Shown: piece by piece, positions 3,567 through 59,960 of the stretch
Layout of the letters: every line of letters begins with the position of its first letter
How positions within the stretch are numbered: position 1 is the stretch's first letter
DNA from: a virus
Lineage: Duplodnaviria; Caudoviricetes
Direction: 5' to 3' (one strand)
Virus record (IMG/VR): IMGVR_UViG_3300033475_000011
Location: 1 to 64,000 of that record
Length of the DNA stretch: 64,000 nt
The notes under the pieces: generated by a model
Seen by the model: the letters and a program-made list of their open reading frames with translations, nothing else
Told to the model about the DNA's origin: nothing
Database searches by the model: none
Translations under genes and position numbers: made by a program

Positions 3567-3781
3567 TCGGCATCTTCCAGCGCCTCCACCTGTGCAACCA
3601 GCGCCACCCCGACTTCCCGGGTGTGTCGTGTGTCCGGGACTACCACTACGACCGGCACCATGCCGGGGATGGTGTGTCGTGGGTGGATGCGGATCCTCCT
3701 CGCCGCAACGCCGGGGTGTGGTCTGCGTTGATGGCCGCACCGGTGGACGAGATGGCCTTGGCGTTCGGGGAGGACATGTGA
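3563..3781 (+). CDS. hypothetical protein
   Basis: GTGA overlap chain. Confidence 0.5.
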   Translation: MIGIFQRLHLCNQRHPDFPGVSCVRDYHYDRHHAGDGVSWVDADPPRRNAGVWSALMAAPVDEMALAFGEDM

Positions 3782-4029: not shown

Positions 4030-4355
4030 CAGCCTCACCGATGAGCGAGGCCCAGTTCCAGCGGCGAGTGATCGAGACCGCGAAGTGGTATGGCTGGCTG
4101 GTGCACCACTCGCGGCCAGCCCGGAACAGCGACGGTTCCTGGTCCACACCCATCGACGGTGACCCTGGCCTACCGGATTTGGTGCTGGCCCGCGACGGAG
4201 TTGTGCTCCTGGTCGAGCTGAAGAAGGACAAGGGCCGCCCGTCGAAGGGGCAACTGAAGTGGCTGGCTGCACTCGGTGTGCATGGTCGTTTGTGGCGGCC
4301 GGCGAACTGGGACGAGGCGTTGGCTGAGTTGTCGGCCCAGCGTCGGGCGGCGTGA
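4026..4355 (+). CDS. VRR-NUC / PD-(D/E)XK nuclease
   Basis: SEAQFQRRVI...GLPDLVLARDGVVLLVELK...Q..WL. Confidence 0.85.
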   Translation: MTASPMSEAQFQRRVIETAKWYGWLVHHSRPARNSDGSWSTPIDGDPGLPDLVLARDGVVLLVELKKDKGRPSKGQLKWLAALGVHGRLWRPANWDEALAELSAQRRAA

Positions 4356-7043: not shown

Positions 7044-7280
7044 TCAGCGGGTGCGGGTGAGGTTGCGACGTTCCCCAGCGGTGGTGCCACCCCGCACAGT
7101 CCAGTCATCCCGCTCGGCGATCGCACCATCCAGGCACTCCGTCTTCACCGGGCAGCGGTTGCACACTGCCTTCGCATCCGCGATCTGCAACTCCGCCGGC
7201 CCCTCGGTTCCGACCGGGGCGAACAACTCCGGGTCGACATCGCGGCACGCCGCCCTGTTCCGCCAGTTCATCTGTGACAC
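7044..7280 (-). CDS. whiB: WhiB family transcriptional regulator
   Basis: WRNRAACRDVDPELF...AKAVCNRCPVKTECL...GGTTAGERR; four Cys. Confidence 0.93.
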   Translation of the reverse strand: MSQMNWRNRAACRDVDPELFAPVGTEGPAELQIADAKAVCNRCPVKTECLDGAIAERDDWTVRGGTTAGERRNLTRTR

Positions 7281-7386
7281 CTCCTCCGTGTCGTTGGTAT
7301 TGGGAGAGGGTTTTCACGGGCCCTTCGGCCCTGTGCCGGACGCCCACGGCTCCCGCCATGGTCACGTACCCTCACCGGCTTCTACG

Positions 7387-7428
7387 TGCCCGGAGCCGGA
7401 GTCGAACCGGCCCTACGACCATCCGGGC
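7387..7428 (-). ncRNA. tRNA-like minihelix (acceptor stem + TpsiC arm only)
   Basis: GCCCGGA-TGGTCGTAGG-GCCGG-TTCGACT-CCGGC-TCCGGGC-A on the minus strand. Confidence 0.65.
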
Positions 7429-49656: not shown

Positions 49657-50637
49657 ATGACCGAACCCACTCGTGCCGCCGGCAAGCTTGGGCGCCGCCC
49701 CAACGACCCCGACAAGCCCCGGCTGCGGCTCGCCCCGCGGCTCGACACCACTGTCCCCGCGCCGCCCGCGCTCGTCGACTGGCTCGACAAAGTCCAGTCG
49801 TGGCCCATGTACGCCAACGACCGCTACGGCGACTGCGTCTGGGCCATGATCGGCCACGCCATCGAGGCATACACCACCTACGGCAAGGGCGACACTGTCA
49901 CGATCTCCGAAGCCGATGTGCTCAAGAGCTATAGCGACGTGACCGGGTTCAACCCCGATGATCCGTCCACCGACCAGGGAACCGTCATCCAGGACGCCCT
50001 GAACTACTGGAAGACGACCGGTGTCGGCGGGCATCAGATCAAGGCGTTCGCACAGGTCGACCACACCAACCCGGACGAGGTCAAAGCCGCACTGAACCTG
50101 TTCGGTGTGCTGCTGGTGGGCGTGAACTTCCCCGCTTCGGCGATGGACCAGTTCAATGCCGGCCAGCCGTGGGACGTGCTCGACAACGACGGCGGCATCG
50201 AGGGCGGTCACGCCATCCACGTCGGACACGCCGACACTGACAACGTCACCTACAACCTCGTCACCTGGGGCGCTGTCGAAGGCATGACCTCGGCATGGTG
50301 GGCCGAGTACGTCGAGGAAGCGTGGATCGCGGTCACTGACGACTGGCTGTCCGAGGCTGGTACGAGTCCGGGAGGGTTGGACCTGTATGGGCTCGGTGAG
50401 GACTTGTCGGCGCTGACTGGTGAGCCCAACCCGTTTCCCGCCCCCGAGCCCACGCCGGTTCCTGCACCGACTCCTACCCCTGAGCCTCCGGCCCCGTCGC
50501 CGGAGCCGGTAGACGACCTGGAGGCCGATCAGAAGTTCGCGGGCACTCTGCATCACTTTGTGCGGAACCCGTGGCTGTACAGCCCCCACCACCTCGCCCT
50601 GGTTGCCAGGAAGTGGCTCGACGCCAGGGGGTTGTAG
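49657..50637 (+). CDS. papain-like cysteine peptidase
   Basis: NDRYGDCV (Cys), GGHAI (His), TWG. Confidence 0.75.
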   Translation: MTEPTRAAGKLGRRPNDPDKPRLRLAPRLDTTVPAPPALVDWLDKVQSWPMYANDRYGDCVWAMIGHAIEAYTTYGKGDTVTISEADVLKSYSDVTGFNPDDPSTDQGTVIQDALNYWKTTGVGGHQIKAFAQVDHTNPDEVKAALNLFGVLLVGVNFPASAMDQFNAGQPWDVLDNDGGIEGGHAIHVGHADTDNVTYNLVTWGAVEGMTSAWWAEYVEEAWIAVTDDWLSEAGTSPGGLDLYGLGEDLSALTGEPNPFPAPEPTPVPAPTPTPEPPAPSPEPVDDLEADQKFAGTLHHFVRNPWLYSPHHLALVARKWLDARGL

Positions 50638-53494: not shown

Positions 53495-54265
53495 ATGCGT
53501 GACGCGCTAGGCGATCGCATGAAGGAGCAATACGAGAACCGCACCAGATATCTACTCCCGCGTCGCACCTACTCGGTGATCCGGCTCGACGGTAAGGCGT
53601 TCCACACCTACACCCGTGGTCTGCAACGCCCGTACGACCAGCAGCTCATGGACGACATGGCCGCTACTGCTCGCTTCCTGTGCGAGACCATCCAGGGCGT
53701 CGCGCTGGCGTACACCCAGTCAGACGAGATAAGCATCCTGACCGTCGACTTCGGCACCCCGAAGACCCAAGCATGGTTTGACGGGAACGTGCAGAAGGTC
53801 GTGTCGATATCGGCGTCGATGGCCACCGCGAAGTTCAACGCGCTCCGCCCTGGCAAGCTGGCGTACTTCGATTCGCGGGTGTTCACCATCCCCGATCCCG
53901 TTGAGGTCGTGAACTACCTCATCTGGCGACAGAAGGACGCCACTCGCAACTCCATCTCTATGGCCGCTCAGTCCCAGTTCTCGGCGAAGCAGCTCCATGG
54001 CAAGTCCTCCAGTGAGATGCAGGACATGCTGTGGTCGGAGCACGGGATCAACTGGAATGACTACGATCCAAGGTTCAAGCGCGGGACCGTGGTCTATCCA
54101 GAGCGGGTGATCGGGTCCGTAGAGTACGTCGACAAGCGAACTGGCGATACGAGGACTGCCGACAACGTTGAGCGCAGGGTGTGGACCATCGACGCGGCAC
54201 CTATCTTCACACGCGACGCTGACTTCCTAGCCTCCTACCTACCGCAGGCCACGGTGGCGGCGTGA
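53495..54265 (+). CDS. thg1: tRNA-His guanylyltransferase / Thg1-like protein (TLP)
   Basis: VIRLDGKAFH, YTQSDEIS, FDG..QK..S..AS, FDSRVF, Y..WRQ.DA.RNSI. Confidence 0.93.
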   Translation: MRDALGDRMKEQYENRTRYLLPRRTYSVIRLDGKAFHTYTRGLQRPYDQQLMDDMAATARFLCETIQGVALAYTQSDEISILTVDFGTPKTQAWFDGNVQKVVSISASMATAKFNALRPGKLAYFDSRVFTIPDPVEVVNYLIWRQKDATRNSISMAAQSQFSAKQLHGKSSSEMQDMLWSEHGINWNDYDPRFKRGTVVYPERVIGSVEYVDKRTGDTRTADNVERRVWTIDAAPIFTRDADFLASYLPQATVAA

Positions 54266-55341
54266 CCAGCCTCGTCCCCACCTCTCCGGTTCCCGCGCCA
54301 GGTGGCGATGAGGACGGCTGGCGCGACACTCTCCAGCTCGTCGGGCAGTGGCTTGTCGAGTACAGCGGCAACAGCCGCGCCACCTATGCCGACGCCATCG
54401 GCTGGCCCTACACCGCCACCGGCAAATGGCGCGGATACGGCGCAGTCCGGCACTCCCTAGGCTGGCTGTCCTGGTGCTACACCCACAGTTTGCACGTCTT
54501 CGACGCCAAACGCCTACATGTCCTCGCCTGGGTCGATGAACTCAACCATTCGCGCCACCCTGACACCGGGAAACCGCTTTCGAAGCGGTCCCGCGCACAC
54601 ATGGTCGCGACCGCCTCAAGCTTCTACACGTGGTGCATGCGGGAGGGGCACACCGAAGCCAACCCCGTGTCGCTCGTTGACCGGAAGAAGCAGGGACTAC
54701 GGACCAGCAAGGACAAGTCCCCCACCCGTTCCCTGTCCCGCCGCGAGGCGCACGCGATGATCCGCGCAGCCGACGCCGATCCTGTCGAGGCGGTACGAGC
54801 GAGGACCGCGGCACTGATCGCGCTTCTCTTCGAGGTCGGCCCCCGGGTTTCCGAAGTATGCAATGCCACCCTCGCTGACATGTACGTGCAAGACGGCCAC
54901 CGCGTCCTACACGTCGAACTGAAGGGGAAGAAAGACCACGAGTATGCACTACCGGATCCGGTGTGCCGACGTATCGACGCGTACCTAGCATCGCGCCGCG
55001 ACATGGACTTGCTGCCCGCGCGACGTGGCCAGGTCAACCACGCGACCTCGCCACTCTTCGCCACCGCGACAGGGAACCCGATCAGCCGGACCGAGGTGTG
55101 GACACTGATCAACCGTATTGCGAAGCTAGCCGGCATCGACCAGCCGGAGACCGTCCACCCGCACGTTGGCCGCCACACCTACATCACCGAAGCGCGCCGT
55201 CAGGGACGACAAACCGCTGACATTCAAGCTTCGGTCGGGCACGAGTTCGCTTCCACCACGGATCGGTATGGGCTGCACATCATCAATCTGGAGAAGAGCC
55301 CGGCCTACGGTGTCGCTGCCGCGTTCGAGGAGGACGAATAG
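54262..55341 (+). CDS. XerC/D-like tyrosine recombinase
   Basis: GPRVSEV (R), LKGKK (K), HPHVGRH (HxxR), STTDRY (Y). Confidence 0.9.
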   Translation: MTSLVPTSPVPAPGGDEDGWRDTLQLVGQWLVEYSGNSRATYADAIGWPYTATGKWRGYGAVRHSLGWLSWCYTHSLHVFDAKRLHVLAWVDELNHSRHPDTGKPLSKRSRAHMVATASSFYTWCMREGHTEANPVSLVDRKKQGLRTSKDKSPTRSLSRREAHAMIRAADADPVEAVRARTAALIALLFEVGPRVSEVCNATLADMYVQDGHRVLHVELKGKKDHEYALPDPVCRRIDAYLASRRDMDLLPARRGQVNHATSPLFATATGNPISRTEVWTLINRIAKLAGIDQPETVHPHVGRHTYITEARRQGRQTADIQASVGHEFASTTDRYGLHIINLEKSPAYGVAAAFEEDE

Positions 55342-58613: not shown

Positions 58614-58651
58614 AACCGAAGGGTTGTTGGTTCGAGTCCAACCGGGGGAGC
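58614..58651 (+). other. att core: 3' half of a tRNA-Asn(GTT)-like sequence (attP-type)
   Basis: AACCGAAGGGTTGTTGGTTCGAGTCCAACCGGGGGAGC with no 5' half; next to the integrase. Confidence 0.8.
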
Positions 58652-58683
58652 AAAACCCCAGGTCAGAGACCTGGGGTTCTTTC
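58652..58683. terminator. terminator after att core
   Basis: ACCCCAGGTC-AGA-GACCTGGGGT followed by T-rich tail. Confidence 0.75.
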
Positions 58684-58718
58684 ATGTCTCGAACGCGACA
58701 CACCGGTTCTCCCACAAA

Positions 58719-59960
58719 CTACCCACCTTCAGCAGCCCCGGACTCCCCCACCATGCCCTCCAACGCGGACGCCGCCACGTCGTTCGCCGCGAACTTCTTC
58801 CTGTAGTGACGCTCCACCACCGCCACCGTGTTGCCCAACTGGTCGGCGATCATGGTGGTCGGCAACCCGGCCTCCTTCAACACGTCGGTCACCGTCTTGC
58901 GCCACACGTGTGACGTGATGCCCGGGTAGCCGATCTCCACGAACGCCTCCTGCAACCGGTTGATCACAGTCGACGGATCCAGCCACCGGCCCTTGTTTGA
59001 CGGGAAGATCGCCCCACCCCCCGATGCCAGCTTCAGGCGCTGCCACGTCGGAACAGACCACTCCGGCACCCGCAGATCCAGTTCGGGCTCGCCACTCTTC
59101 CGGAGCGGTTCCCGCACGATCCCCTCACCGGTGACCCGAACCAGGTGGTAGCGGACCAGCACCCGCCGGTTCACGGGATCGATGTCGTCGCCGTCGAGGG
59201 CGAGGAGTTCCCCGATGCGCACACCGGTGGAGAGGGCACAGTCATGCACGTCCGGGAGTTTCTTCCACACCCTGGCGCGGCCCCCGAGACTGCGTCCGCG
59301 CTTGTCGTACTGTTTGCGCTCGGCCAGGGCGATGAGCTTGGCCTTCACGTCGGCACGCTCGGTCGCGGTGAGTGCCCGCACCTCCTTCTTCTCCCCCGCA
59401 ACGAGCCGGCCGACCGACTTCACCGGGTTGATCCGCATCGCCTGGTTACGGATCGCATAAGCGCAGATACCGGACAGCACGGCCCGAACCGAGTGGGCTG
59501 AGGAGTAGCTGCGTTCATCCCGCGCGCGCTGGATTAGCCTGTCGAAGCTGCTGGGCATGTGTTCGGCCTCGCGGGCCAGGAGTTCCCCGATGGCGGGTTT
59601 GACCCAGTTCCGCACATAGCCCCCGTACATGCGGACGCTACTTTTGGCCATGCCGCCCTGGTTGGCGACACGGGTAACCTCAGCAAGCCACAGGTCCGCG
59701 ATCGTGGACATCCGGGTGTCGCCGTTGATTGCCCCGGAGGTAGCTTCGTTCGCGAGGATCGTCATGCGATTCTTCAGCGCGTTGACGGCTTTGGTTTTGG
59801 TGGGGCCGGTGCGGCGAACCTCTTTGCGGCTGCCGTCGGCGATCCGCATGTAGGCGCGGGCCTCCCAGCGGGTGTAGGTGGTGCCGTCCCGTTTGTGTCG
59901 GGTTTCGGAGCGGGTGGTGATCTCCCCGTAGCTTCCGATCGGGGTTGGTGGCCTCGCCAT
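58719..59960 (-). CDS. int: tyrosine integrase
   Basis: GVRIGELLAL, SHVWRK, QLGN, RHY; N-terminal arm-binding domain. Confidence 0.93.
   Translation of the reverse strand: MARPPTPIGSYGEITTRSETRHKRDGTTYTRWEARAYMRIADGSRKEVRRTGPTKTKAVNALKNRMTILANEATSGAINGDTRMSTIADLWLAEVTRVANQGGMAKSSVRMYGGYVRNWVKPAIGELLAREAEHMPSSFDRLIQRARDERSYSSAHSVRAVLSGICAYAIRNQAMRINPVKSVGRLVAGEKKEVRALTATERADVKAKLIALAERKQYDKRGRSLGGRARVWKKLPDVHDCALSTGVRIGELLALDGDDIDPVNRRVLVRYHLVRVTGEGIVREPLRKSGEPELDLRVPEWSVPTWQRLKLASGGGAIFPSNKGRWLDPSTVINRLQEAFVEIGYPGITSHVWRKTVTDVLKEAGLPTTMIADQLGNTVAVVERHYRKKFAANDVAASALEGMVGESGAAEGG

Follow-up and report, generated by a model that had tools for sequence, protein, structure and literature searches.

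A conserved tRNA-like minihelix without D and anticodon arms in phage operons, a candidate tRNA-mimic punctuation signal

In mitochondria, as with the mascRNA of the MALAT1 transcript, RNase P and RNase Z are recruited to a tRNA or tRNA mimic within a longer transcript, and the ends of the RNAs on either side are defined in this way. This tRNA punctuation leaves human mitochondria with mRNAs that are nearly leaderless. To our knowledge, tRNA punctuation has so far been associated with mitochondria and a few eukaryotic long non-coding RNAs. The part of a tRNA read by RNase P, RNase Z and the CCA-adding enzyme comprises the 12-bp acceptor/T stack, the T-loop, the elbow and the region of positions 73-74. 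A minihelix made of the acceptor stem and the T-arm, that is, a 12-bp coaxial stack with a T-loop, is the minimal in vitro substrate of RNase P, of the CCA-adding enzyme and of some aminoacyl-tRNA synthetases. According to one report, 12 bp is the length that RNase P measures (PMC4919913). The t-elements of plant mitochondria carry the motif GGTTCRANYCC; mRNA termini fall at their ends, RNase P and RNase Z cleave them, and non-encoded C, CC or CCA are found on them (PMC1920247). As for phages, the mycobacteriophage DS6A encodes a 'TLD only' tmRNA gene, the product of which has been proposed to act as an SmpB decoy (Hudson, Lau and Williams 2014, PMC4131195). A 2026 preprint describes three bacterial tRNA-mimic families, skipping-rope, DUF2693-FD and salivarius-1, and the element reported here is not among them.

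We analysed a 64,000-nt stretch of viral DNA (hereafter the window), which is the first 64 kb of the 80,751-bp IMG/VR virus record IMGVR_UViG_3300033475_000011. The record encodes a terminase, a portal, a major head protein, a tape measure protein, an endolysin and two tyrosine integrases, which identifies it as a phage, and the element sits in the early arm of this 80.7-kb temperate siphophage. The nearest GenBank phage, Saccharomonospora phage PIS 136, is only distantly related. The element is surrounded by small leftward-running genes without known function and by an FtsK-like gene; PHROGs and Pfam assigned no function to the neighbouring early genes. ARAGORN detected neither tRNA nor tmRNA genes in the window or in the whole 80.7-kb record. 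The features of the locus are as follows.

7557-7450, minus strand: 35-aa ORF with the Shine-Dalgarno sequence GAAGGAG; its TAG stop lies 21 nt ahead of the element
7387 to 7428, minus strand: tRNA top-half minihelix (acceptor stem, 10-nt linker, T-arm and discriminator A), from sequence, minimum free energy (MFE) fold and covariance model R1
7422 to 7428, minus strand: 5' acceptor strand GCCCGGA, identical to tRNA-Leu positions 1-7
7428-7422 paired with 7394-7388, minus strand: acceptor helix of 7 bp, read from the sequence
7412 to 7421, minus strand: 10-nt linker TGGTCGTAGG with the invariant GGTCG, in the 7+5 register
7411-7407 paired with 7399-7395, minus strand: T-stem GCCGG/CCGGC of 5 bp, the T-arm spanning 7395 to 7411
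7406-7400, minus strand: T-loop TTCGACT, an exact match to the family consensus
7386 to 7394, minus strand: 3' acceptor strand TCCGGGC, discriminator A (7387) and the family-invariant C74 (7386)
7318 to 7331, minus strand: small hairpin GGGCC-GAAG-GGCCC with no U-tract after it, in the spacer between the element and the whiB ribosome-binding site
7044 to 7280, minus strand: whiB (Pfam PF02467, Whib, 1.6e-19)

A preliminary description of the window, based on its letters, had placed the element between the 35-aa ORF and whiB and on their strand, and both the sequence and Pfam bear this out. The likely start of whiB is the ATG at 7271, 8 nt past GGAGGAGG, whereas the listed ORF begins with the GTG at 7280. 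No close relatives of this WhiB protein were found in IMG/VR.

Read from 7428 to 7387 on the minus strand, the element is GCCCGGA/TGGTCGTAGG/GCCGG/TTCGACT/CCGGC/TCCGGGC/A, 42 bases in all. The sequence, the 7-bp acceptor helix, the 5-bp T-stem, the T-loop, the discriminator A and the lack of CCA are exactly as they had been read initially; CGTAG directly follows on the 3' side, so that no CCA is encoded. The MFE fold of the isolated 42-nt stretch is the acceptor/T-arm helix, and all 12 pairs form in each of the three registers 7+5, 6+6 and 5+7. In the 6+6 register, the linker reads ATGGTCGTAG (7422-7413), which is also the linker of the homologues in contigs L130 and L133. The covariance model R1 scores the site at 65.6 bits (E about 4e-13) as its sole match in the genome, a value that is partly circular as the window sequence is one of the 27 training rows, unlike the identity of its linker and loop to those of independent members. 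A descriptor allowing any perfect 12-bp top half with a GTTCRANYC loop also matched the genome once, at this site, compared with a mean of 0.05 matches per simulated genome. The folding-energy z-score of -1.2 is unremarkable on its own in DNA of 65% GC. The significance of the window element thus comes from its tRNA-specific motif and from its homologues, not from its stability. Together with these homologues, the element forms a conserved structured-RNA family, which we describe in the following.

Homologues were collected from IMG/VR with a scan that specified only GCCCGGATGG, a gap of 3-16 nt and GGTTCRANTCC, and therefore did not select for pairing. It returned 45 contigs with 26 distinct sequences. 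The parts that had been left unspecified, namely the outer T-stem and the complementary 3' strand, complete the stack in 21 of these 26 sequences, as a contiguous stack of 11-12 bp in 18 of them and with one mismatch in the other three. The remaining matches are unrelated to the family. Contigs L143 and L161 were discarded as members because what matched there belongs to true tRNA-Leu genes, namely the variable arm and the T-arm. When the linker sequence was used in a second scan, contigs of low GC content (0.40-0.44) were gained, one of which is related to human-faecal phage contigs. In these low-GC members the first acceptor pair is U-A in place of G-C, and ACCA is encoded in three copies. 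The 15-mer CCCGGATGGTCGYAG alone is unspecific, its extra matches in IMG/VR being mostly unrelated coding sequence, and the whole window element was not found in IMG/VR in exact or near-exact form.

In cultured phages from GenBank, blastn identified the element in the Mycobacterium phages MyraDee and HINdeR, the Gordonia phages Cafasso, Aleemily, ObLaDi, Morgana, MakoManhole and Trine, the Streptomyces phage Dagobah and the Corynebacterium phage StAB. The matches in SWU2 and Sheen are only partial. Mycobacterium phage L5 (NC_001335) has a weak variant at 50426-50472 on the minus strand, with a score of 23 bits and the linker CGACGGTTCGCGGTGT; a stoperator-like TTGACAGCCACC follows it directly. 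No RNA feature is annotated at the element in any of the phage records examined, and at most sites nothing is annotated; in Trine and Morgana, the blastn match overlaps the CDS of a hypothetical protein. With dozens of IMG/VR contigs in addition to the cultured phages, the family is spread over many actinobacterial and other phages.

The members share a continuous 12-bp stack, partitioned as 5+7, 6+6 or 7+5, the linker AUGGUCGYAG, a canonical T-loop, and a purine at position 73 followed by C74. We aligned 27 distinct members without gaps (alignment A1). In A1, which was filtered for at least 11 pairs and is thus partly selected for pairing, standard pairs occupy 98.8% of the cells. Compensatory double changes occur in seven of the 12 pairs: acceptor pairs 1 and 4 and, in the T-stem, all but one of the six pairs. 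Covariation scores 0.434, versus 0.097 after shuffling, and none of 500 shuffles reaches the observed value, with the proviso that these controls leave some of the phylogenetic signal in. When the 3' partner is slid by one to three columns, pairing falls to 40-62%, and RNAalifold on its own predicts the same structure. Covariation among homologues had been proposed at the outset as the test that would separate a functional element from a decayed tRNA or att relic; the stems do covary, while the linker and T-loop are conserved, so that the outcome favours a functional element.

Variation is indeed concentrated in the stems, as opposed to the conserved GGTCG linker, T-loop and C74. In A1, the invariant or nearly invariant positions are A7, G9, G10, U11, C12, G13 and G16 of the linker, the T-loop UUCGACU with its closing pair G53-C61, and the inner acceptor pairs; pair 3-70 is C-G throughout. 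The variants recovered by R1 are of the 5+7 or 6+6 type, and the window copy can also adopt 7+5, but the sum of the stems is fixed at 12 bp. Further variants have another GGU-containing linker, AACGGUNCAC, and the second copy of MyraDee has a tiny additional hairpin. The discriminator is A, or G in several members, and C always comes after it. Position N-1 of the members shows no preference for U. The linker AUG is ruled out as a start codon, as MyraDee has AAG and other variants have AACGG at this place.

The element also matches parts of tRNA-Leu(UAA). Among the matches listed, its last 25 nt recur unchanged at the 3' end of genuine tRNA-Leu(UAA) genes, in over 120 bacterial genomes, mostly proteobacterial. 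The same genes start with GCCCGGATGG(T/C), which corresponds to the first 10 nt of the element, or to the first 11 where T is at position 11. The tRNA-Leu-like 5' start pointed out in the preliminary description was therefore correctly recognized. With these shared ends, the element looks like a tRNA-Leu lacking roughly positions 12-60, and the sequence comparison suggests that tRNA-Leu is probably the ancestor of the family. As it has no anticodon arm, no long variable arm and nothing of the D arm beyond its start, the element cannot decode. A canonical tRNA gene was ruled out, since ARAGORN reports 0 genes at the window and neither a D arm nor an anticodon arm is present. Using permissive Rfam thresholds on the window, the best match in the tRNA clan was to tRNA-Sec, at 15 bits versus a threshold of 47 bits, with the middle of the model skipped.

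Could the element then be a decayed tRNA-Leu pseudogene or an att relic without present function? Its first 10-11 and last 25 nt are those of real tRNA-Leu(UAA) genes, the phage is temperate, and bacterial genomes contain tRNA-Leu 3' fragments typical of integrated elements. Six bacterial contigs (L012, L043, L063, L072, L080 and L081) carry such partial tRNA-Leu(UAA) copies, which begin in the anticodon loop or in the variable arm and reach the 3' end. These copies occur with or without a full gene and are the usual footprint of elements integrated in tRNA-Leu. The phage itself has two integrase genes and, separately, a tRNA 3' fragment at 58.6 kb:

54262-55341, plus strand: tyrosine integrase (PF00589, phrog_1), less than 5 kb from the second integrase
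58623-58690, plus strand: tRNA 3' fragment, with the T-arm GTTGG TTCGAGT CCAAC and the 3' acceptor strand CGGGGGA G
58719-59960, minus strand: tyrosine integrase (PF00589, phrog_1)

That fragment is followed by a terminator-like hairpin, CCCCAGGTC..GACCTGGGG, with a T-rich tail. It is located about 65 nt from the integrase gene on the minus strand and is probably the attP core used for integration into a host tRNA gene. The 42-base element, however, has a 5' acceptor strand, unlike att identity blocks, is 47 kb away from the integrases, the nearest of which are at 54.3 and 58.7 kb, and occurs only once, findings that together rule out that it is an attP or a tRNA 3' fragment. Moreover, the same deletion-like architecture and the same linker are found in dozens of unrelated phages, with compensatory changes. 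We thus regard a functionless relic as highly improbable.

The placement of the family members relative to genes follows a recurrent pattern. In the IMG/VR loci, the element almost always starts 7-12 nt past the stop codon of an ORF on the same strand. These preceding ORFs belong to many unrelated families, for which PHROGs and Pfam yielded no function beyond DUF7447, phrog_1911 and one HNH endonuclease. Downstream, the typical layout is a G-poor, C/A-rich spacer of 20-35 nt, a Shine-Dalgarno sequence and the next start codon. In the cultured phages, the element is found 8 nt after gp89 of MyraDee, 8 nt after gp41 of Trine, 10 nt after gp79 of MakoManhole, 20 nt after gp83 of HINdeR and 33 nt after gp88 of Dagobah. 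Cafasso has copies 7, 7, 37 and 9 nt after genes 154, 153, 152 and 150, respectively. Gene 157 runs in the opposite direction, and a further copy follows it at 5 nt, on that other strand. This last copy indicates that the orientation of the element is tied to transcription rather than to replication or packaging. The window copy fits the pattern loosely. It is intergenic and on the same strand as the genes, but it starts 21 nt past the stop codon rather than 7-12 nt, and the spacer to the likely whiB ATG is 116 nt long and G-rich instead of short and C/A-rich.

A position directly after stop codons is also what one would expect of 3' stabilisers and terminators, and the stems are GC-rich, at about -20 to -24 kcal/mol. 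The element might accordingly be valued for its structure only, as a very stable hairpin that keeps exonucleases out, shields neighbouring cistrons from one another, or causes transcription to pause or end, its likeness to tRNA being merely inherited from tRNA-Leu and not read by tRNA enzymes. Nevertheless, the most conserved parts are the unpaired T-loop UUCGACU, the linker GGUCG, R73 and C74, and the stack is exactly 12 bp. A generic hairpin would not constrain unpaired bases and stack length in this manner. In addition, no U-tract comes after the members, which are followed by CGAC.., CATG.. or A-rich runs, or, for the window copy, by CGTAG. An intrinsic, Rho-independent terminator is ruled out by the lack of a U-tract and of any terminator-like minus-strand site at the element, and a scan for promoter and terminator consensus sequences gave nothing at the element. 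A role of structure alone appears unlikely to us.

The reading that we favour, to which we give a probability of roughly one half, is by analogy with the processing signals of organelles: the element would be a tRNA mimic that punctuates phage mRNA by way of RNase P and RNase Z. The parts of a tRNA that serve in end processing are kept and conserved, those needed for decoding are gone, and the elements are placed one per intergenic gap, which makes punctuation the best-supported mechanism. It is further supported by the existence of homologues and their covariation, the fixed 12-bp sum, the conserved unpaired parts, the ACCA of low-GC members and the precedent of the t-elements. A tRNA-punctuation or mascRNA-like signal had already been put forward for the window copy. 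The genomic pattern of that proposal stands, with elements on the gene strand, shortly after stops and in several copies per operon; as for its biochemical part, we infer that the element is transcribed as RNA, that RNase P, RNase Z and the CCA-adding enzyme recognize it, and that it affects message stability.

In the favoured scenario, the window element would be transcribed within the leftward early operon, between the 35-aa ORF and whiB, and its short GG-containing linker would stand in for the D-loop at the elbow. A cut by the host RNase P between 7429 and 7428, on the 5' side, and/or a cut after A7387 by RNase Z or another activity that trims tRNA 3' ends would turn the polycistronic RNA into individual messages, the ends of which would be defined and structured. 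A mini-RNA of about 42 nt might also be released, which the CCA-adding enzyme could tag. One subfamily (contigs L124, L127, L132 and L149) has the next ATG 2 nt past the discriminator (GGGCA C ATG). In these loci, the mRNA produced by cleavage at the tRNA-like 3' end would have almost no leader, which recalls mitochondria. Several findings speak against punctuation, i.e., the loose placement of the window copy and its being alone in its genome, the lack of a U preference at N-1, and the gene-free tandem arrays of Trine and L160, which suit a released RNA at least as well.

Arrays of three to four or more copies, about 100-240 nt apart, are present in Trine, MakoManhole and contigs L160 and L145, and also in L153. 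In Trine and L160, the spacers of which we read, there are no genes between the copies; the spacers consist of (GGCNN)n pentanucleotide repeats, e.g. GGCACGGCACGGCACGGCGTGGCAAGGCAAGGC. The Trine array (L258, MH271318) covers locus positions 973-1244. The annotated start of Trine gene 40 falls inside the first minihelix, and the true start is probably the ATG that follows GAGAGGA near locus position 1281. In L160, a second type of minihelix is interleaved in the array, GCCCT AGAGGCACACA CCCAGG TTCGAGT CCTGGG AGGGC A, at about 3690-3740 and 4200-4250 of the reverse complement (reverse strand).

It is therefore conceivable, if rather doubtful, that the element is excised and CCA-tagged as a free mini-RNA of about 42-45 nt that builds up and functions in trans. 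As a decoy or sponge, it could titrate a factor that recognises the acceptor end or the elbow of tRNAs, for instance a toxin that cuts or modifies 3' CCA ends, SmpB, EF-Tu, the CCA-adding enzyme or an aminoacyl-tRNA synthetase. Gene-free arrays would make sense for such an RNA, as would the encoded ACCA of the low-GC members and a linker and T-loop conserved beyond what simple processing might need. There is precedent in the SmpB titrator proposed for the TLD-only tmRNA of DS6A (PMC4131195) and in the abundant, stable and toxic small RNAs made from early promoters of Cluster A mycobacteriophages, which were not linked to this element (PMC5712189). Conversely, an RNA that acts in trans needs neither the tight placement after stop codons nor one copy per gene in operons, and the window genome has a single copy. 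The absence of G3:U70 speaks against an alanine or tmRNA identity, and the G discriminator of several members against conserved leucylation (PMC2377443). A73 is a major determinant for LeuRS, the change to G reducing charging 143-fold in Aquifex aeolicus, in which LeuRS charges a minihelix-Leu with A73, unlike the E. coli and human enzymes (PMC2377443). Given that determinant, the members with G73 and the inability of E. coli and human LeuRS to charge minihelix-Leu, leucylation is unlikely to be a conserved property of the family.

The DS6A precedent does not extend to homology. The TLD of DS6A is not matched by the family model, R1 finding nothing in this phage, which rules out that the family is the DS6A 'TLD only' tmRNA. 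At about 28.5 kb on the plus strand of DS6A (JN698994), we noticed a tmRNA-type T-arm and 3' end, GCGAG TTCGATT CTCGC CGGCTCCA, for which ARAGORN makes no call; this site is presumably the published 'TLD only' gene.

Punctuation and a mini-RNA acting in trans are not mutually exclusive. It is tempting to speculate, even though we consider it improbable in this full form, that phages of several bacterial groups punctuate their genes with armless tRNA mimics, excised by the enzymes of the host (RNase P, RNase Z and the CCA-adding enzyme), and use the accumulating, CCA-tagged minihelices as decoys for host factors or defence toxins directed at tRNA acceptor ends. Their operons would then be processed like mitochondrial transcripts, and some of the mRNAs would be leaderless.

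If tRNA-processing enzymes do cut the elements, many phages would organise their early transcripts by tRNA punctuation. The family occurs in models that are easily handled, including the M. smegmatis phages MyraDee and HINdeR, with a weak variant in L5, Gordonia phages and the Streptomyces phage Dagobah. Genome annotation is affected too, as the elements are unannotated and, in Trine, the ORF call of gene 40 begins inside an array. Part of the 'abundant small non-coding RNAs' reported from actinophage RNA-seq may also correspond to these elements. As compact natural, putative substrates of RNase P and RNase Z, they could be used as processing modules in synthetic operons of actinobacteria.

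As for previous descriptions, Rfam 15 has no matching model, including for loci with several canonical copies. A search of the literature on minihelices, tRNA-like elements or tRNA punctuation in phages and actinobacteriophages did not reveal a description of the family. The main text of the article on a catalogue of 10,006 viral RNA candidates mentions tRNA-like candidates, none of them recognisable as this element (PMC10690425).

Compared with the tRNA-Leu(UAA) genes, the element is identical in positions 1-10, the T-arm, the 3' acceptor strand and A73 in many bacterial genes, but it is devoid of about 45 nt. The acceptor/T-arm minihelices used as model substrates are laboratory constructs without the conserved 10-nt linker. 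The tRNA-like domain of tmRNA similarly combines an acceptor stem, a reduced D-loop analogue and a T-arm with no anticodon arm. It differs from the phage element, which lacks G3:U70, the GCUCCACCA-type 3' end and the P2 helix; neither Rfam nor ARAGORN in tmRNA mode matched the element to tmRNA. With mascRNA and mitochondrial punctuation, the likeness is between the nearly leaderless messages of mitochondria and the phage subfamily with an ATG 2 nt past the discriminator. Those signals have full cloverleaf-like folds and operate in nuclei or organelles, whereas the phage element does without D and anticodon arms and is found in bacteriophage operons. The t-elements are likewise tRNA-like structures with a GGTTCRANYCC T-arm inside mRNAs (Forner et al. 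2007, PMC1920247). They are organellar and consist of individual degenerate cloverleaves, the processing of which was mapped experimentally; the phage element is one homologous family with a fixed, armless 42-nt design, known from sequence. We know of no sequence relation between the two. While tRNA-like processing signals are thus known from organelles and long non-coding RNAs, a homologous, armless family borne by phages appears to be new.
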